A program made the translations under genes and the position numbers. From assembly GCA_025934435.1 (NCBI GenBank), contig JAICYB010000004.1:12688-76687 (forward strand): a DNA stretch of 64,000 bases. The letters are read 5' to 3'. Numbering within the stretch: position 1 is the first letter of the stretch; the number at the start of each line of letters is the position of its first letter. The notes beneath the pieces are model-generated. The model was given only the letters and a program-made list of their open reading frames with translations. It had not been told where the DNA came from and made no database searches. Positions 5,347-12,581 of the stretch are shown here, in pieces. This stretch comes from Actinomycetes bacterium (GTDB lineage Bacteria > Actinomycetota > JAICYB01).

Positions 5347-6161
5347 CCCTCATCCAGAAGGGAAGCGGCCTCGGGCAGTGGTCCGCGGAGCGCAAGGCGG
5401 AAGCCACCGGACAGAAGGTGGCGACGATGCGCGTGTGGCGCGGTGATGCGACCGGCGGACGATTCGAAGAGTTCCAGGTCCCCTACGAGGACGGCGAGGT
5501 CGTCCTCGACATCCTTCACCGCATCCAAGCGACGCAAGCGAGCGACCTCGCCGTGCGCTGGAACTGCAAAGCCGGCAAGTGCGGATCGTGCTCGGCGGAA
5601 GTCAACGGGAAGCCCCGTCTCACGTGCATGACGCGCATGTCGATCTTCGAGTCCGGCGATCCGATCACGGTCAATCCGCTGCGGACCTTCCCCGTCATCA
5701 AAGATCTCGTGACCGACGTTTCTTTCAACTACGAGGTCGCCGCGAAGATCCGCCCGCTGAAGCCCGTGGCGCCCGCCGGCGACGACGGTCACCACCGCAT
5801 GTTCCAGGAAGACGTCAACCGCGGGCAGGAGTTCCGCAAGTGCATCGAATGCTTCCTCTGCCAGAACGTGTGCCACGTGATCCGCGACCACGAGGAGAAC
5901 AAGCAACACTTCGCGGGGCCGCGCTTCTTCATCCGCATGGCCGAGCTCGATATGCACCCACTCGACACCGAGCCGAACCGCGCGGAGCGCGCACAGGACG
6001 ACTTCGGTCTCGGCTATTGCAACATCACGAAGTGCTGCACCGATGTCTGTCCGGAGCACATCCACATCACCGACAACGGGATCATCCCCATGAAGGAACG
6101 GGCCATGAGCGCGAAGTACGACCCGATCCCGTGGATCATCCGGAAGATCCGCCGGAGGTAG
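5343..6161 (+). CDS. sdhB: succinate dehydrogenase/fumarate reductase iron-sulfur subunit
   Basis: 2Fe-2S motif CKAGKCGSCSAEVNG; 4Fe-4S/3Fe-4S Cys clusters (CIECFLCQNVCH, CNITKCCTDVCP); GTG start overlapping the sdhA stop. Confidence 0.85.
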   Translation: MTLIQKGSGLGQWSAERKAEATGQKVATMRVWRGDATGGRFEEFQVPYEDGEVVLDILHRIQATQASDLAVRWNCKAGKCGSCSAEVNGKPRLTCMTRMSIFESGDPITVNPLRTFPVIKDLVTDVSFNYEVAAKIRPLKPVAPAGDDGHHRMFQEDVNRGQEFRKCIECFLCQNVCHVIRDHEENKQHFAGPRFFIRMAELDMHPLDTEPNRAERAQDDFGLGYCNITKCCTDVCPEHIHITDNGIIPMKERAMSAKYDPIPWIIRKIRRR

Positions 6162-6377
6162 TCAGCCCGCGAGGGCTTCGTCCTCGCCGTCCGGCTGGAA
6201 GATCTCTTCGATCTGCAGTTCGAAGAGGCTCGCGATCTTGAAGGCGAGTGGAAGGCTCGGGTCGTACTTCCCCTTCTCGATCGACACGATCGTTTGACGA
6301 GAAACGTCGAGCCGCTCCGCGAGATCGGCCTGCGTCCAATCACGCTCGGCGCGTAGGACCGGCAGCCGGTTCCTCAT
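6162..6377 (-). CDS. XRE-family HTH transcriptional regulator (small, Cro/C1-type)
   Basis: Motif QADLAERLDVSRQTIVSIEKGKYDPSLPLAFKIASLFELQIEEIF; probable start MRNRL internal to the track ORF 6162..6416; start overlaps the upstream membrane-protein stop. Confidence 0.7.
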   Translation of the reverse strand: MRNRLPVLRAERDWTQADLAERLDVSRQTIVSIEKGKYDPSLPLAFKIASLFELQIEEIFQPDGEDEALAG

Positions 6378-6943
6378 GTCCGCATGAGCCAGAGGACGAC
6401 GTACGTCACGAGCCACACGCCGGCGACGACCGGCACCACGATGAGCAGATCGGGGGCCGCGAAGTGGTAGACGCGGCCGAGGATCGCATAGCCGAGCCCG
6501 CCGACCACGAACGCGCCGAGCGCGACGACGGCTGATCGCGCGAGGACCGTACGTTGGAACTCGTCGCCCTGCTGTTCGACGAGGACTGCGAGGAGCGGGA
6601 GCGGCGCCAGGAAGAAGAGGACGGCGACGGCTCCAAGAACCGCATGGCTGGCGACGTTCGGATGACGTCCGATGGTGACGCCCAGCCCTACCGCAAAGAT
6701 GAAGGTCGACACCAACGTGAGAGGCTCGATCTTGCGCCCGCGACGACGACCGACGACCGACTGCGTCGTCATGCCGAGCAGGAAGAACGCGTCTCCGGCG
6801 ATCAAGAATCGAGCACCGCGGATCGAGTTGTCCGGCGCCGCAGCACCGAGACCGAGAAGGACGACAGCGACGGCGAAGATCACGAGGAACATCGCGCGCT
6901 CGGGCGCGCTGAACCGTCGCGAAGTGTCGCGCTGCTCGCTCAT
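6374..6943 (-). CDS. polytopic membrane protein; paralogue of the 7697..10243 family
   Basis: About 6 predicted TM helices and no soluble domain. Shares a C-terminal block with four upstream paralogues: DE.QR...S..AF...P.L....W. Confidence 0.55.
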   Translation of the reverse strand: MSEQRDTSRRFSAPERAMFLVIFAVAVVLLGLGAAAPDNSIRGARFLIAGDAFFLLGMTTQSVVGRRRGRKIEPLTLVSTFIFAVGLGVTIGRHPNVASHAVLGAVAVLFFLAPLPLLAVLVEQQGDEFQRTVLARSAVVALGAFVVGGLGYAILGRVYHFAAPDLLIVVPVVAGVWLVTYVVLWLMRT

Positions 6944-7629
6944 GCCGGCTCGATCAGATAGAGATGCCGCTGGCCGACGCCCTTGAGGTCGTGCGAGCCG
7001 GCGTCCTTCAGCGGTTCGTCCGTCGCCGTCGCCGTGGCCTCGGAAACGAGGATCTGCCCGCCCTTCGCCGCACTACAGACGCGGGCCGCTTCGTGGACCG
7101 CGAGACCAACGAAGCGGTTGCCGACAGCGAAGGCTTCGCCCGTGTGGATCCCGATGCGGATCTTCACCTGCGCGCCGCGCGGCCAAGATTCCGCGGCGAT
7201 CGCGCGTTGCGCCGCGAGCGCCGCCGCCATCGCATCTTCCGGACGTTCGAACGCGGCGAAGCTCGCGTCCCCCGAATCGTCGACGACGCGCCCACCGTGG
7301 GATGTCAGCGCCTCGATGAGGATCTCGCGGTGTCGTCGCAGGACGTCGACGTAATCTTCGCCGAGCTCGCTCGCGAGCGCCGTCGACTCCACGATGTCTG
7401 TCATCACGAATGTGGCGGTTGTCCGTTCGGTGTCTTCGGACGCCGCCGGGAAGATGTCCTCGACCGCTACGCGGAAGAAGCGAGCAAGTTCCTTCGCGAG
7501 CGGGAGGCTCGGATCGTACTTGCCCTTCTCGATCGAGACGATCGTCTGGCGCGAGACGTTGACGGCATCGGCGAGATCGGCCTGCGCGATGTCGCGCCGC
7601 GTCCTGAAGGCGGCAAGTCGGTTGAGCAT
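6940..7629 (-). CDS. XRE-HTH / class-III nucleotide cyclase fusion protein
   Basis: N-terminal HTH nearly identical to the 6162 regulator (VSRQTIVSIEKGKYDPSLPLA). C-terminal ~155 aa carry adenylate/guanylate cyclase catalytic-domain hallmarks (FVMTDIVEST...DDSGD...RIGIHTGEAFAVGNRFVGLAVHEAARV). ATGA overlap with the downstream membrane gene. Confidence 0.7.
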   Translation of the reverse strand: MLNRLAAFRTRRDIAQADLADAVNVSRQTIVSIEKGKYDPSLPLAKELARFFRVAVEDIFPAASEDTERTTATFVMTDIVESTALASELGEDYVDVLRRHREILIEALTSHGGRVVDDSGDASFAAFERPEDAMAAALAAQRAIAAESWPRGAQVKIRIGIHTGEAFAVGNRFVGLAVHEAARVCSAAKGGQILVSEATATATDEPLKDAGSHDLKGVGQRHLYLIEPA

Positions 7630-7696
7630 CAGGCCTCCGCCACCCGGACGGCAGCTTGGTCGATGAGCTCCGTCCGTCTGCGGTGCGTCCGGCGGA

Positions 7697-8314
7697 TCAC
7701 ATGCGCCTCTTCAGGACGAACAACGCGGCGAACCAAGCAACCGCTGCGGTGATGAAGACGTATGACGGCTCGAGCTTCGGGCCGATGTTCGAAGACTGCA
7801 GGAACGCGAACACCATCACGACCGCGAGCGTCGCGAGGAACGCGAATGCGAGGGAACCGTTGACGAGGGCGCGCTGACGCTCGTCCTCCGAGCGGCGCAA
7901 GCGGTACACACCGATGCCGACCGAAACGACGAGGCACAACAAGATCACGAGCGAGAACGCGGTCAACCACGCCGGCCGGCCGTGCGCGTAGTTCGCCGTC
8001 GCGCGGTCGAACGCGAGGAAGAGCGAGAGTGAGAAGCTCACGGTGATCGAACCGTCCGGCCGTGCCGTTGCTTGACGAGCCTTGCGCCAGAGATCCGCCA
8101 TATCGACCACGCCGCTGACGAAGAACCCCAGCGCCATCAGCCCGCGGTCGCGCGGTGTCCCTGTCTTGGATCCCGTCGCGATCCATGCGATGAGCGCCGC
8201 GACGAAGGCGCCATCACCGACGACCTTCACGAGCCATCCGAGCAGGCTCCGTTTGTCCTTCGCGACGTCGGTACTCACATGCGCCTCTGCAGGACGAACC
8301 ACGCACCGAACCAC
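7697..8314 (-). CDS. paralogous polytopic membrane protein 1
   Basis: 205-aa ORF, 4-5 TM helices; C-terminus ...SEDERQRALVNGSLAFAF...WFAALFVLKRRM is conserved with its neighbours. Confidence 0.5.
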   Translation of the reverse strand: MVRCVVRPAEAHVSTDVAKDKRSLLGWLVKVVGDGAFVAALIAWIATGSKTGTPRDRGLMALGFFVSGVVDMADLWRKARQATARPDGSITVSFSLSLFLAFDRATANYAHGRPAWLTAFSLVILLCLVVSVGIGVYRLRRSEDERQRALVNGSLAFAFLATLAVVMVFAFLQSSNIGPKLEPSYVFITAAVAWFAALFVLKRRM

Positions 8315-9069
8315 GACGTTGTCGCCGTCGCGATCACGTAGTCGGGACGTAGCGACGGCCCCACCTTCAGCGCTTCGAGCAACGAGAACGTGAGGACGAG
8401 GGTCATCGTCACGATGAAAGCGAACGCCAACGATCGGTTCGCGATCAGCGACTCTCGCTCGTCACTGCGCCGGATCCATTCGATCACGGCGTACGGGGTC
8501 GTTGCGATGAGCCCGACCACCAACACGATGCCGAGGGCCGTGAGCCACGCCGGCTGCGATCGATGTGGCTGGGGCGTCGTGAGCTCGAAGGCCATCGCGA
8601 GCCCAGCGAGTGCCGCGACCCCAACGGGAACGTGCCGACGGTTTCGCGATAGGGCGGAACCCTTGGAAGATCGAGCGGACGCGATCTCGGCCCCCGACCA
8701 CATGAGGAAGCAAATCGCGCCGGCGAGACGGATCAACGAATCGTGCCCATTCCCGGACTCCCACGCGTACGCCGCAAGCCCGGCGAGGAACGCGTACTCA
8801 CTGACGAACCTGAGGACGTTCTTGCCGAGCGACGCCGTGCCTCGTGAGCGCTTCTCGCCCGTGCGCGCGCGACTCCGAACGGCTCGCGCCCATCCCGCCG
8901 CGTATCCCGCGACGATGATGGTGGCGATGCCGGTATAGGACGCAGCGTCCCGATTCTTCTGCGGGACGAGGAACCCGACCATCGCCGCGAGACCGACGAC
9001 GACCGCGCCGGTCAGGAGGATGAAGATCAGGCGGTCCTCAGCCCAGAAGTCGCGGATCTTCGCCTTCAC
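8275..9069 (-). CDS. paralogous polytopic membrane protein 2
   Basis: Track ORF 8275..9675 is over-extended. A GTG at 9069 overlaps the upstream stop (GTGA); an alternative ATG lies near 8982. C-terminus ...SDERESLIANRSLAFAF...WFGAWFVLQRRM. Confidence 0.45.
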   Translation of the reverse strand: MKAKIRDFWAEDRLIFILLTGAVVVGLAAMVGFLVPQKNRDAASYTGIATIIVAGYAAGWARAVRSRARTGEKRSRGTASLGKNVLRFVSEYAFLAGLAAYAWESGNGHDSLIRLAGAICFLMWSGAEIASARSSKGSALSRNRRHVPVGVAALAGLAMAFELTTPQPHRSQPAWLTALGIVLVVGLIATTPYAVIEWIRRSDERESLIANRSLAFAFIVTMTLVLTFSLLEALKVGPSLRPDYVIATATTSWFGAWFVLQRRM

Positions 9070-9665
9070 GAGTACCTCCGCCGGAAGACCAGCGACGAGA
9101 CGACCCACGACACCATCCCGACGGTGAAGACGAGCCACATCGAAAGCTTCGGTGCTTTGAACCACGCTTCGAGGAGGCCGTACGACAGCGCGAAAAGCAT
9201 CGTGACGAAGAAGGCGATCGTGATCGACTCCGTGAACATGAGCCGGTCGACCTCTTTGCTCCGACGACCTCCAAGGAACGCGCTCAGCGTTCCGGCCACA
9301 GACGACACGATCGTCCCCGCGGCGATCGCGATGAGCGCCCACGTCGGCTGCGGCTTGTGCGACTGAAAGATGCTCCCCGCGCCGACGAGGACGAAGTAGA
9401 AGCCGAAGCAGGCGAGGCTTATCGAACGAGTCGCGGCGATGAGCGTCGAGACGAGCAGCGCCCCGATCACCATCGCGACGATCGCGACGGGCGTTCGCCA
9501 GGAGCGCGGGCCGAAGCCGGCGATCAGGCCGAGCGCCAAGCCGGAGATACCGACGGTGAACGTCAGGTATCGGAACCAGGCTCCAGCGAACTGACCGGCT
9601 CGGTACGCCTTGCTCGGTTCGTTCACGAGTACCGCCGCCTGAACAACCATTCGAGCGTCGCCCAC
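9066..9665 (-). CDS. paralogous polytopic membrane protein 3
   Basis: 199-aa ORF; C-terminus ...VDRLMFTESITIAFF...VSSLVFRRRYS. Confidence 0.5.
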   Translation of the reverse strand: MGDARMVVQAAVLVNEPSKAYRAGQFAGAWFRYLTFTVGISGLALGLIAGFGPRSWRTPVAIVAMVIGALLVSTLIAATRSISLACFGFYFVLVGAGSIFQSHKPQPTWALIAIAAGTIVSSVAGTLSAFLGGRRSKEVDRLMFTESITIAFFVTMLFALSYGLLEAWFKAPKLSMWLVFTVGMVSWVVSSLVFRRRYS

Positions 9666-10207
9666 ACCACCGCACCGAACACGGGTACCCAGATCAACCC
9701 GACCCGCGGCACTTTCACGAACAGCTCGAGCGCGCCGTAGATCCCCGCCGCGAGCACGGTCACGAAGAACGCGGCGGATGTCGCGTCGCTGAACAACCGC
9801 TGTTCTAGCTCGCGCACACGGCGCGAATAGAACAACGCGGTCCCGATCGCGAGGCTAAAGACCAACATGAAACTCACGGCTTCGAGCGCTCCCGACGTCG
9901 CCGTGTGGTGCCCGGCCGACTTATCGAGGACGCCGGCGATGATCCCGGGAGTCACCACAACGGGGATCAGGAGGCCGAGCCACGAACGCTTGTAGAGCGC
10001 ATAGCCGACGAAGGCCAACAAGATCACCCCGCCGACGATCCCTCCGGCGAGCGGATAGCGAGTCACCAGCGGCTCGAAGTGGCCGAGCCGGGCGATGATC
10101 ACCGCGGCGAGCGCTACCCCGCACGCAGCCCCGATGAAGAACGAGATCCGGTTCGAGTCCCGCTCGGACGGCGATGCCTTCTGCTTGCCCTGCCCTTCGT
10201 CCCCCAT
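9623..10207 (-). CDS. paralogous polytopic membrane protein 4
   Basis: C-terminus ...ELEQRLFSDATSAAFF...LEWLFRRRYS. Start is probably MGDEGQGK (ATG ~10207) rather than the track start 10243, because a TTGACA promoter-like hexamer lies inside the extended N-terminus. Confidence 0.45.
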   Translation of the reverse strand: MGDEGQGKQKASPSERDSNRISFFIGAACGVALAAVIIARLGHFEPLVTRYPLAGGIVGGVILLAFVGYALYKRSWLGLLIPVVVTPGIIAGVLDKSAGHHTATSGALEAVSFMLVFSLAIGTALFYSRRVRELEQRLFSDATSAAFFVTVLAAGIYGALELFVKVPRVGLIWVPVFGAVVWATLEWLFRRRYS

Positions 10208-10316
10208 GAACGCGAGAGTAAAGCAGGCTTTACTTCTTGTCAAGGCTCCTTTACGTCAGATCGCGACTTCGGTGCCTCGCCGTAGCAGAGCACCGTTGAA
10301 GCACCGAAGTCAGGGG

Positions 10317-11567
10317 TTAGGCCATCCGGTCGACGATGGCCTGTCCGAATTCGGAGCACTTCACCGGGTCGACCTGCGGCTGCATCAGCCGGGCGAAGTC
10401 GTAGGTCACGACCTTCTCCGCGATCGCGCGCTCGATGCCGTGCTCGATGAGATCGGCGGCGGCGTCCCAGCCCATGTGACGGAACATCATCACCCCGGAC
10501 AGGATCACGCTCGACGGGTTCACCTTGTCCTGGCCCGCGTACTTCGGCGCCGTGCCGTGCGTCGCCTCGAAGATGGCGTGCCCCGTGTCGTAGTTGATGT
10601 TGCCGCCCGGCGCGATGCCGATCCCCCCGACCTGCGCCGCGAGCGCGTCGGACAGGTAGTCGCCGTTCAGGTTCATCGTCGCGATGACGTCGAACTCATC
10701 GGGACGGGTCAGCACCTGTTGCAGCGTGATGTCCGCGATGTTGTCCCACACGAGTATCTGACCCTCGGGTGGTTTGCCGCCGCAGTCGTCCCACGTCACG
10801 GCGCGGCCCTCGAACTCCTTGTGCACGAGCCCGTAGCCCCAGTCACGGAACGCGCCTTCGGTGAACTTCATGATGTTGCCCTTGTGGACGAGGCACACAT
10901 TGCGCCGCTTGTAACGCAAGGCGTATTCGATCGCTGCGCGGACGAGGCGCTCCGTCCCTTCGCGCGACACCGGCTTGATGCCGATCCCCGACGTGTTCGG
11001 GAAACGGATCTTGTTCACGCCCATCTCGTCCTGGAGGAACTTGATCACCTTCTGCGCTTCCGGTGACTCCGCTTCCCACTCGACGCCGGCGTAGATGTCC
11101 TCGGTGTTCTCGCGGAAGATCACCATGTCGACCTTGCCCGGCTCCTTCACCGGCGACGGCACACCCTGGTACCAGCGGACGGGGCGCAGACACACGTACA
11201 GGTCGAGGATCTGGCGGAGCGCGACGTTCAGCGAGCGGATACCGCCGCCGACGGGCGTCGTGAGCGGACCCTTGATGCCGACGAGATAGGTGCGGAACGC
11301 TTCGATCGTGTCGTCCGGCAGCCAGTTTTCGAAGCGGTCGAAGGCGTCCTGTCCGGCGTGCACCTCGAACCAATTGATCTTCTTCTTGCCCCCGAAGGCT
11401 TTCTCGACGGCGGCATCGAAGACGAGCTGCGACGCATGCCAGATGTCCGGACCCGTCCCGTCCCCGCGGATGAACGGCATGATCGGGTCGTCGGGCACCT
11501 GCAGGACGCCGTCCGAGATCGAGATGGTGCCGCCCTGCGCAGGCGGGGTTACGTCTTTGAACGCCAT
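10317..11567 (-). CDS. icd: NADP-dependent isocitrate dehydrogenase
   Basis: 416 aa; full-length match to the prokaryotic dimeric IDH pattern ([34 protein letters not shown]). Confidence 0.95.
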
Positions 11568-11594: not shown

Positions 11595-12581
11595 GTGACG
11601 AGCCTAACCGCGCGTGACCTCCGGACGCTCCCGAAGACCGATCTGCATCTGCATTTCCAGGGGTCCGTCCGAATCGCGACGCTCCGCGAATTCGCGGCGA
11701 AGCACGGGACCGAGCTGCCGCCGGGGCTCGAGGGCGACAGCTACTCGTGGAACGACTTCATCGACTTCATCCGTCAGTACGGCATCGTTTGCAGCGCTTT
11801 GCAGGAGCCGGCCGACTTCGCACGCGTCGCGACCGAGATCTGCGAGGACCTCGCACCGCAGGGCGTCCGCTACGCGGAAGTGACGCTTTCGACACGCAGC
11901 AGATCGGACGTCTCCGCCGCGCTCGACGGCTTCGACGAAGGGTTCGACCGGTTCGGTGTCCGCTGCCGCCTCGTGCTCGATCACGTTCGGGGGTTCCCCG
12001 TCGAGTTCGCCGAGCAGACGCTCGACGCGGCGCTCGCGTACAAAGATCGCGGTGTCGTCGCGATCGGCCTCGGCGGGCCGGAACAGGTGCCCGGAGCATC
12101 GGCAGCCCCCGTCTTCAAGAAAGGGATCGACGCCGGCCTCCATTCCGTGCCGCACGCCGGAGAAGCCGCCGGTCCCGAGAGCATCCGGGAAGCGATCGAT
12201 CTTCTCGGGGCGGAACGGATCGGCCACGGCTTCCGCATCCTCGAGGACGAAGCTCTGGTCGACGAGGTCCGCGACCGCGGCATCGCACTCGAGGTCTGTC
12301 CGACGTCGAACGTTGCGCTTCGACTCATCGATTCGCTCGACGCGCACCCGCTTCCGCGCCTCATCGACGCCGGCCTCACGGTCACCTTGAATTCGGACGA
12401 CCCCGCGATGTTCGGTTCGTCCGCCCTCGGCGAATACGAGGCAGCGCGGGGGGCCTTCGGCATGCCGGACGAGGCCCTGGCGGCGCTCGCGCGGGCCGGG
12501 GTCCAAGCCTCGTACGCTGACGAGGACATCAAACGCCAGATGCTCGAAGGCATCGACGCCTGGATCAGGGAGGAAGCGTGA
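11595..12581 (+). CDS. add: adenosine deaminase
   Basis: [13 protein letters not shown] zinc-binding HxH; HAGE and SDDP motifs; GTG start chosen downstream of the divergent icd start. Track ORF 11358..12581 is over-extended. Confidence 0.85.

Follow-up and report, generated by a model that had tools for sequence, protein, structure and literature searches.

CylR2 of Enterococcus faecalis has been characterised as a repressor both structurally and genetically, and its gene lies downstream of that for the membrane protein CylR1 (PMC3709268). As a homodimer it binds and represses its own promoter, and CylR1, a predicted protein with three transmembrane (TM) helices, is needed for induction (PMC3709268; 10.64898/2026.09.04.749385). 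According to a 2024 preprint, the enterococcal cytolysin is the one case for which this system has been described, and how prevalent it is beyond that is unexplored (10.1101/2024.08.13.607848); in the literature that we searched, CylR2-like families came up in only one bibacillin preprint. Here we describe a module from an uncultured actinobacterium that combines a CylR2-like regulator of the XRE type with five small membrane proteins and with a second regulator whose helix-turn-helix (HTH) domain is fused to a nucleotidyl cyclase domain. It lies between sdhB and icd on a 64,000-nucleotide stretch of contig JAICYB010000004.1, which we call the window and to which all coordinates refer unless another locus is named. 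We read the module as an expanded CylR1/CylR2-like sensor-repressor system that works without a phosphorelay and is coupled to cyclic-nucleotide synthesis. This reading we regard as about evenly poised between being right and being wrong. As far as the searched literature shows, the combination of an ordered multi-paralogue array with an XRE-cyclase fusion has not been described.

A translationally coupled operon

The module consists of seven minus-strand open reading frames (ORFs) at 6162-10207, which in the 5' to 3' direction encode the membrane proteins p4, p3, p2 and p1, the HTH-cyclase, the membrane protein p5 and the small XRE regulator (Table 1). The only intergenic gap separates p1 from the cyclase gene by 67 nt and is bridged by a coupled ORF of 23 codons, and all other junctions are start/stop overlaps. 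The seven genes thus form one translationally coupled operon. Their G+C content at third codon positions (GC3) is 0.81-0.87, as compared to 0.87-0.91 in the flanking icd and sdhB genes, in a window with about 65% G+C.

The preliminary description of this stretch had listed the same seven ORFs in the same order, and all are present, with no frame-shifted gene among them. The three overlaps that it gave (p3/p2, cyclase/p5 and p5/XRE) are correct, and two further GTGA overlaps join p4 to p3 and p2 to p1. While order and frames stand, some of the extents had to be revised: p2 has 264 amino acids (aa) instead of about 200, the small XRE gene starts at 6377, and p4 most likely begins at ATG 10207, not at TTG 10243. 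The latter codon was rejected as a start because it is the first triplet of the conserved -35 box TTGACA of the operon promoter, and a 194-aa NCBI-sourced entry (P0003) is identical to p4 read from ATG 10207. For p3, the matching NCBI-sourced entry has 194 aa, which implies a start at 9650. The N-terminal extension of p2 has a GC3 of 0.85, and its orthologue in the related locus L001 is called at 252 aa.

With respect to the 23-codon ORF, its 3' end (GCGGAG..GCCTGATGCTCAACC) matches the end of m5, a 185-aa gene of the same paralogue type as p5 (type E) that occupies the same position in L001. Both have an Arg-rich N-terminus at the GTGA overlap. The short ORF is probably what was left of a further type-E paralogue after an in-frame deletion that kept both coupling junctions. 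A 185-aa ORF that overlaps this region (7629-8186) was also considered as a gene, and was rejected as spurious because of its GC3 of 0.54.

Table 1. Features of the module and its borders (window coordinates; O1 and O2 are candidate operators)
Feature	Position	Strand	Remarks
sdhB	ends 6161	+	flanking gene
Small XRE	6162-6377	-	71 aa, start ATG 6377; Pfam HTH_3 55.9 bits
p5/XRE junction	6374-6377	-	ATGA start/stop overlap
p5 (type E)	6374-6943	-	189 aa
Cyclase/p5 junction	6940-6943	-	ATGA start/stop overlap
HTH-cyclase	6940-7629	-	229 aa
Class III nucleotidyl cyclase domain	6943-7431	-	Pfam Guanylate_cyc (PF00211) 42.7 bits, cut-off 21.9
XRE HTH, CylR2-like	7432-7629	-	Pfam HTH_3 46.7 bits
23-codon ORF	7629-7700	-	VIRRTHRRRTELIDQAAVRVAEA; GTGA with p1 stop, TGATG with cyclase start
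p1 (type D)	7697-8278	-	193 aa
p2/p1 junction	8275-8278	-	GTGA start/stop overlap
p2 (type C)	8275-9069	-	264 aa, N-terminal extension of about 70 aa
p3/p2 junction	9066-9069	-	GTGA start/stop overlap
p3 (type B)	9066-9626	-	186 aa if started at the GTG of the GTGA overlap
p4/p3 junction	9623-9626	-	GTGA start/stop overlap
p4 (type A)	9623-10207	-	194 aa, GC3 0.87
-10 hexamer	10215-10220	-	TACTCT (TAnnnT), 17 nt past the -35 box
O2	10218-10233	-	GTAAAGCCTGCTTTAC; perfect palindrome, right arm overlaps the -10 hexamer
-35 box	10238-10243	-	TTGACA, overlapped by O1
O1	10239-10254	-	GTAAAGGAGCCTTGAC; 16-bp imperfect palindrome, right arm holds most of the -35 box
icd	10317-11567	-	flanking gene

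The small regulator and CylR2

The small XRE regulator is, by its sequence, a close homologue of CylR2, to which it has 51% identity over 59 aa (BLASTP, E 2e-19). It is almost invariant across all related loci. Within the module, its HTH domain is 61% identical over 66 aa to that of the HTH-cyclase, such that the two regulators are paralogous, as had been supposed. The models of two antitoxins also respond to the small regulator, in both cases below their cut-offs (Y4mF, 42.6 bits against 71.65; HipB, 25.9 bits against 79). The earlier view that both component families lack a known function is overstated in the case of the regulator, because its close relative CylR2 is a characterised repressor; for the membrane proteins it holds.

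An uncharacterised family of membrane proteins

The five membrane proteins are true paralogues of one family with a common, conserved C-terminal block. Both points had been made in the preliminary description, and the relationship goes beyond composition. In pairwise comparison, p1 and p2 are 42% identical over 108 aa (E 2e-27), p3 and p4 match with an E of 2e-13, and p2 and p3 with 4e-11. Protein p5 has no detectable pairwise similarity to the other paralogues (E 0.4-0.8). It was compared with a hidden Markov model (HMM) of 96 family sequences from which p5 and all sequences with a BLAST E below 0.05 to p5 had been left out, and it reached 57.4 bits, whereas none of 1000 shuffles exceeded 8.4 bits.

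A profile built from the membrane proteins of the window and a few close relatives retrieved 488 clusters at E<=1e-3 (96 of them at E<=1e-10) among 1.84 billion representative proteins. The matches fall into two size classes of about 125-135 aa and 180-200 aa. No Pfam or NCBIfam family matched p1 to p5 above cut-off, the sub-threshold noise comprising DUF2178, DUF1129, SLATT and CyanoTRADDas_TM, and no Pfam family recurred among 150 representatives, for which reason we treat the family as unclassified. It thus is a large, uncharacterised family that is absent from Pfam. Other ways of searching returned little. Word-indexed protein searches with family alignments gave only 8 and 6 matches, with hydrophobic words saturating the candidates. 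Peptide-pattern scans found two loci in representative genomes, one already known locus in metagenomes and no relatives on viral contigs; resting on one or two short peptides, these scans carry little information on true abundance, and the result for viral contigs is limited in the same way.

The match of DUF2178 (PF09946), whose members are likewise small and polytopic, was to p5 and remained below the gathering threshold (14.6 bits, E 0.034, cut-off 22.8). Similarly weak, sub-threshold matches were seen for P0006, an orthologue of p1, and for a 180-aa member from L002. This model did not match p1 to p4, it was absent from the top 25 families matched by the 150 representatives, and it is not mentioned in the searched literature.

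An AlphaFold2 model of p3, computed with 121 family sequences, predicts six helices with high confidence (mean predicted local distance difference test score 92.1), and a comparison with solved structures in the PDB gave no meaningful fold match (best E about 1). According to column statistics, helices 3-6 form a core of all members, helices 1-2 are added only in the long forms, and helices 5-6 are the most conserved. Since every other loop is rich in Lys and Arg (H2-H3, H4-H5 and the C-terminal RR tail) and those between are neutral, the sequences indicate a topology with both termini inside. The conserved residues R121, E125, R128, R183 and R184 (p3 numbering) would therefore be cytoplasmic and Pro159 outside. 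The most conserved residues also include A138, F139, T142, G170 and W174, which are predicted to lie within the membrane.

The HTH-cyclase fusion

That one of the two regulators is fused to a cyclase is borne out by its Pfam matches, HTH_3 in the N-terminal part and Guanylate_cyc in the C-terminal 160 residues or so, with a linker of about 10 residues between them. In the PDB, the HTH part matches the CylR2 structure 1utx (9.6e-11) as well as 9k3w, a 65-aa regulator of the PbsX family (7e-16). The cyclase domain matches the LipJ cyclase region of NCBIfam (6e-25, 87.8 bits), and its best solved-structure matches are Ma1120 of M. avium (4e-19) and Rv1900c/LipJ of M. tuberculosis (9e-17).

We assigned roles to individual residues by alignment with Ma1120, for which they have been worked out (PMC4215837), and with Rv1900c. 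Both metal-binding residues (Asp78 and Asp121) and the transition-state arginine (Arg183) are present. The canonical transition-state asparagine and a canonical substrate pair (Lys/Asp for ATP, or Glu with Cys, Ser, Thr, Gly or the like for GTP) are both absent. The position of the asparagine is taken by His179, where active Ma1120 has Ala and the aligned Rv1900c has His, and the substrate-specifying positions that correspond to K101 and D157 of Ma1120 carry the non-canonical residues Asp117 and Arg172. All six of these residues are invariant in 37 full-length homologues, although the proteins are only 47-83% identical, and this pattern argues for a functional and specific active site. With Asp and Arg as the substrate-specifying pair, the nucleotide product is not predictable; the invariance of the pair makes it a candidate for an unusual nucleotide specificity. 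The fusion is represented by about 40 clusters, all from metagenomes or metagenome-assembled genomes (MAGs), and for XRE-cyclase fusions we found nothing in the searched literature.

The promoter and two candidate operators

The sequence upstream of p4, GTAAAGGAGCCTTGACAAGAAGTAAAGCCTGCTTTACTCT, holds a pair of 16-bp palindromes with the pattern GTAAAG-N4-CTT(T/G)AC, 21 bp apart from centre to centre, which overlap the promoter elements and which we consider candidate operators (O1 and O2). The promoter is of the sigma-70 type, with the predicted transcription start at or next to the first ATG. A simple promoter scan missed it because its -10 hexamer fits TATAAT poorly. All aligned loci, including those with a single membrane protein gene, have the same layout of operators and promoter ahead of their first family gene, and in nine aligned promoters the bases G..AAG and CTTTAC are invariant, while the flanking bases are not. 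In the whole window, the pattern GT[ACT]AAG-N4-CTT[TGA]AC occurs only at O1 and O2, and an 18-bp extended form of the O2 palindrome has one match, with 0.02 expected. For comparison, the cyl promoter region beside cylR1 contains TTGTCAAGTG-T-CACTTGACAA, with a half-site GTCAAG that resembles the GT(A/C)AAG found here.

The ATG of p4 lies 7 nt past the -10 hexamer, and the first start codon lies 6-8 nt past it in the six multi-gene loci whose promoters were compared (window, L001, L002, L004, L006 and L009). The mRNA is therefore probably leaderless. The single-pair locus L007 differs in having a leader, in which a GAGGAG Shine-Dalgarno sequence is present.

As to which regulator uses the operators, the HTH domain of the cyclase fusion is more variable across loci than the small XRE protein. 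In a branch formed by L006 (3956-4156) and L018 (2-170), whose HTH-cyclase is 47% identical to that of the window, the recognition helix reads SNATI or SRSTI in place of SRQTI, with loss of the Gln of SRQT, whereas O1, O2 and the small XRE regulator of L006 are unchanged. The near-invariance of the small regulator, set against a variable cyclase HTH and constant operators, makes the small XRE protein the likelier operator-binding autorepressor.

Pairs of regulator and membrane protein at other loci

Small XRE regulators had been said to occur commonly next to a membrane protein, and this is what we find. At loci with a single copy of the membrane protein family, a CylR2-like XRE gene lies directly downstream in all six cases; these comprise two representative-genome MAGs (L007 and L008) and four distant short members obtained from profile matches. 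Such operons hold only the membrane protein gene and the XRE gene. Relatives of the small regulator are found on 530 plasmid records from bacteria and haloarchaea, and in each of the six that we opened, the adjacent gene encodes a protein with 3-4 predicted TM helices. One of these partners, of 124 aa, is a clear member of the family (82 bits; L021, Pseudomonas aeruginosa plasmid CP109682.1). An acidic D-E-[RLM] motif just before a TM helix is present in several unrelated partners, as it is in CylR1 and in the family, in what is so far a handful of sequences.

Two of the plasmid loci have neighbours that deserve mention. In L021, the family member and its XRE gene (1130-1707) are directly followed by a gene for a non-ribosomal peptide synthetase, which recalls the position of CylR1/CylR2 beside peptide-toxin genes. 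In L024 (Bacillus cereus plasmid CP128128.1, 1498-2000), the order is reversed, with the XRE gene followed by that of a 99-aa protein with three TM helices and a KDER motif, and the gene that diverges from this pair carries the annotation of a beta-channel forming cytolysin.

Distribution and evolution of the array

Every context of an HTH-cyclase that we retrieved also carries family members and a small XRE gene. The module adjoins sdhAB wherever the contig reaches that far, and it adjoins icd in most loci (L006 shows no icd). The number of membrane paralogues varies from 2 to 8 between related genomes. Four of them precede the cyclase gene and one follows it in the window; the corresponding numbers are five and two in L001, two and none in L002 and L003, one and one in L004 and L005, and five and three in L006. 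L009 and L010 have at least three genes and a fragment before the cyclase gene and one gene after it, and L017 and L018 have one after it, the upstream side lying beyond the contig end.

In a neighbour-joining tree of the C-terminal modules, the genes group by position and not by genome. This means that the paralogue types, which we call A to E (Table 1), predate the divergence of the lineages, and that the arrays differ by loss and gain. Positional orthologues of p4 are L001 m1, L004.1, L006.1 and L009.1; those of p1 (P0004-P0007) show, in the family alignment, an identity of 50-74% with it; and the orthologue of p5 in the same position of L009 (P0174) is 53% identical. Of the five types, B is the nearest to the genes of the single-pair loci L007 and L008. 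A recent tandem amplification of the array was considered and rejected, as the orthogroups are positional and old and their order is kept across diverged loci. The module has host-like GC and GC3 and a fixed chromosomal position near icd and sdh. Since the orthologues at this fixed position have diverged to 47% identity, we conclude that it is inherited vertically.

Some of the related loci contain further sequences of note. In L009, an unannotated gap of the array (6496-7116) holds a fragment that matches only positions 100-185 of the family profile (E 4e-19) and is probably a pseudogenised paralogue. L001 encodes, between the HTH-cyclase and the last family member (11837-12346), a 169-aa membrane protein that the family HMM missed at E 1e-3; it is either a very divergent member or belongs to a different family. 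In L002 and L003, unannotated small ORFs of 53, 65 and 87 aa flank the module (L002 6610-6771 and 8947-9453), the 53-aa ORF of L002 lying between icd and the conserved promoter. They have no counterpart in the window.

The borders of the operon

At its downstream end, the operon meets sdhB without a single intergenic base, the TAG of sdhB (6159-6161, plus strand) abutting the TGA of the small XRE gene (6162-6164, minus strand). There is no terminator-like structure between the two stops, and the gap at this junction is 2 nt in L009. Convergent transcription could lead to collisions at this point. At the other end, an 11-bp perfect inverted repeat with a 25-nt loop (GACTTCGGTGC ... GCACCGAAGTC; 10265-10311, minus strand) sits immediately behind the stop codon of icd, ahead of the promoter of the operon. 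This repeat, which a simple terminator scan did not call, may serve to terminate icd. Rfam gave no matches over the whole window.

How the module may work

Gene content, homology and conserved DNA sites are what the sequences establish, whereas the protein contacts, DNA binding, signal and enzymatic activity proposed below are inferred. If the module is a sensor-repressor system of the CylR1/CylR2 kind, dimers of the small XRE protein would bind O1 and O2 and repress their own operon, and the membrane proteins would act as sensing or anti-repressor partners. The variable N-terminal helices might give each paralogue type an input of its own, while the conserved cluster predicted to face the cytoplasm (R121, E125, R128, R183 and R184) would be the surface that meets the HTH proteins. 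Dimerisation through the HTH would, in the HTH-cyclase, hold two cyclase domains together, in keeping with an obligate cyclase dimer on a 10-residue linker, such that the same membrane input, or the occupancy of DNA, could set the rate of cyclic-nucleotide synthesis. The cyclic nucleotide would then be the output of the module beyond autoregulation. Of the earlier proposal of a membrane-stress or signalling module, signalling is the part that we retain as the best reading, and we found nothing specific to membrane stress.

Several observations weigh against this reading. The likeness of the membrane family to CylR1 is architectural only: CylR1 scores 0.9 bits against the family HMM, which places it at rank 292 among 2000 shuffles of itself, and hhalign gives a probability of 0.07%. 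Because CylR1 lacks detectable similarity to the family profile, the membrane partners are comparable by analogy, the repressors by homology. We could not build a profile of CylR1 either, since a tblastn search of plasmids returned only copies that are at least 96% identical. The cyclase has neither the canonical Lys/Asp nor a Glu/x substrate pair (Asp117/Arg172 instead), and its activity could be weak, or it could serve as a sensor that binds nucleotides and not as an enzyme. Given that the recognition helix has changed in the L006/L018 branch and the operators have not, the cyclase HTH may not bind O1 and O2, and may have another DNA target, or none, in that branch. No regulon is visible in the 64 kb, as the module's own sites are the only matches to the operator pattern. 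Furthermore, the way in which CylR1 and CylR2 transfer the signal is itself unresolved in the literature (PMC3709268; 10.1101/2024.08.13.607848; 10.64898/2026.09.04.749385).

The alternative with the most in its favour, which we consider possible if somewhat unlikely, is that the membrane proteins are the cargo of the operon. They would then be a channel, a transporter or a membrane-remodelling device, possibly a hetero-oligomer, that the XRE proteins keep repressed until it is needed, with the cyclase domain sensing or co-regulating. That the only detectable target of the regulators in the 64 kb is their own operon is what one would see in such a case, as is the absence of anything else from the single-pair operons; the old paralogue types stand in a fixed order, as subunits of a complex might, and the intramembrane positions among the most conserved residues fit as well. 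However, no transporter or channel family reaches its cut-off in Pfam or NCBIfam, the fold search found nothing comparable, a copy number of 2 to 8 is hard to square with a fixed complex, and the sole characterised system with such a gene pair uses its membrane protein for signalling (PMC3709268). A different doubt concerns the cyclase domain alone, which might be dead or nearly so and serve as an NTP- or bicarbonate-binding or dimerisation domain that tunes the second repressor, with no second messenger being made. The replacement of the substrate Lys/Asp by Asp117/Arg172 and of the transition-state Asn by His179 speaks for this, as substrate-site changes often lower the activity of class III cyclases (PMC4215837). 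Yet the metal-binding Asp pair, the transition-state Arg and the three deviating residues are all invariant at 47-83% identity, which fits a specific site better than decay, and the active enzyme Ma1120 likewise does without the Asn (PMC4215837). We therefore hold a catalytically inert domain to be improbable; such a domain overlaps, in any case, with the sensor-repressor model.

The gene arrangement also calls to mind toxin-antitoxin or anti-phage modules, in which the membrane proteins would be membrane-damaging toxins or effectors, the XRE proteins antitoxins and autorepressors, and the cyclase the source of an alarm nucleotide as in Pycsar. A toxin-like gene followed by an XRE gene, tight coupling and autoregulation resemble systems of the higBA or mqsRA type, and there are faint matches in the same direction, those of the small regulator to Y4mF and HipB, one of the cyclase to PycC models (about 26 bits) and one of p4 to the SLATT 2TM effectors (E 0.12). 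Each of these either falls short of a curated cut-off or is weaker than the generic class III match to LipJ. The membrane proteins match no toxin family in Pfam or NCBIfam and nothing at all in PADLOC, and their single match in PHROGs is weak (p3, E 0.005); Pfam and PADLOC revealed no effector or domain that binds cyclic nucleoside monophosphates; and the viral contigs contained no relatives, within the limits of the search patterns. Taken together with a fixed chromosomal site, host-like GC and GC3, and orthologues that have diverged to 47% identity, a role in defence appears very unlikely to us.

A wider proposition goes beyond this locus, and we put it forward as rather doubtful. CylR1/CylR2 might be a minor offshoot of a very large group of phosphorelay-free signalling systems in bacteria and archaea, in which the conserved acidic and basic cytoplasmic face of a small polytopic membrane protein directly controls a CylR2-type HTH dimer. 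In the actinobacterial clade of the module described here, the HTH would have been recruited as the receiver part of a cyclase, such that a cyclic nucleotide, perhaps other than cAMP in view of the invariant Asp/Arg pair, could report on up to eight differentiated receptors in addition to autoregulation.

Comparison with known systems

In relation to CylR1/CylR2, the likeness begins with the repressor. It and CylR2 are both single-domain HTH_3 proteins, 66-71 aa long, that have the recognition helix VSRQTI and the motif K-x-K-Y-x-P-S-L-x-L-A in common, and in both operons the gene directly follows that of a small polytopic membrane protein. Neither system involves a kinase or phosphorelay. The C-terminal module of the family also has the layout of CylR1, namely a TM helix, an acidic motif of the DER type, a TM helix, a Pro-containing loop, a TM helix and a basic tail. 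In CylR1, the motifs at the two charged positions are KKDER and NKRTS. There are differences as well. The partners have 4-6 or more helices here, whereas CylR1 has three; the partner genes number five, not one; a second, cyclase-fused regulator is present; the half-sites are spaced by N4 and not by N5 as in cyl; and the module lies between icd and sdh, with no lanthipeptide or toxin genes nearby.

The passage of the signal from CylR1 to CylR2 has been an open question ever since the system was first described. The present findings bear on it in that CylR2-type repressors with an adjacent small membrane protein are widespread, as the plasmid records, archaeal ones included, make plain, and in that one family of such partners has hundreds of representative clusters and is missing from Pfam. 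The ordered and anciently diverged array of two to eight paralogues is, moreover, a natural series of receptor variants.

The cyclase domain invites comparison with two further groups. It shares with Ma1120 and Rv1900c the metal-binding Asp pair, the transition-state Arg and a compact catalytic domain of about 160 aa. It differs from them in its N-terminal partner, which is an XRE HTH here, an alpha/beta hydrolase in LipJ and missing in Ma1120, and in the substrate residues, which are Asp/Arg here, Lys/Asp in Ma1120 (PMC4215837) and, from the alignment, Asn/Asp in Rv1900c. Pycsar systems likewise have a cyclase of the class III type with non-canonical substrate residues beside small membrane proteins, whereas here the cyclase is fused to a DNA-binding domain and the locus is conserved, chromosomal and vertically inherited. 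Compared with the cytolysin regulators, the HTH-cyclase would add what that system lacks, an enzymatic readout on the same HTH, and it could thereby make the coupling between membrane protein and HTH measurable.

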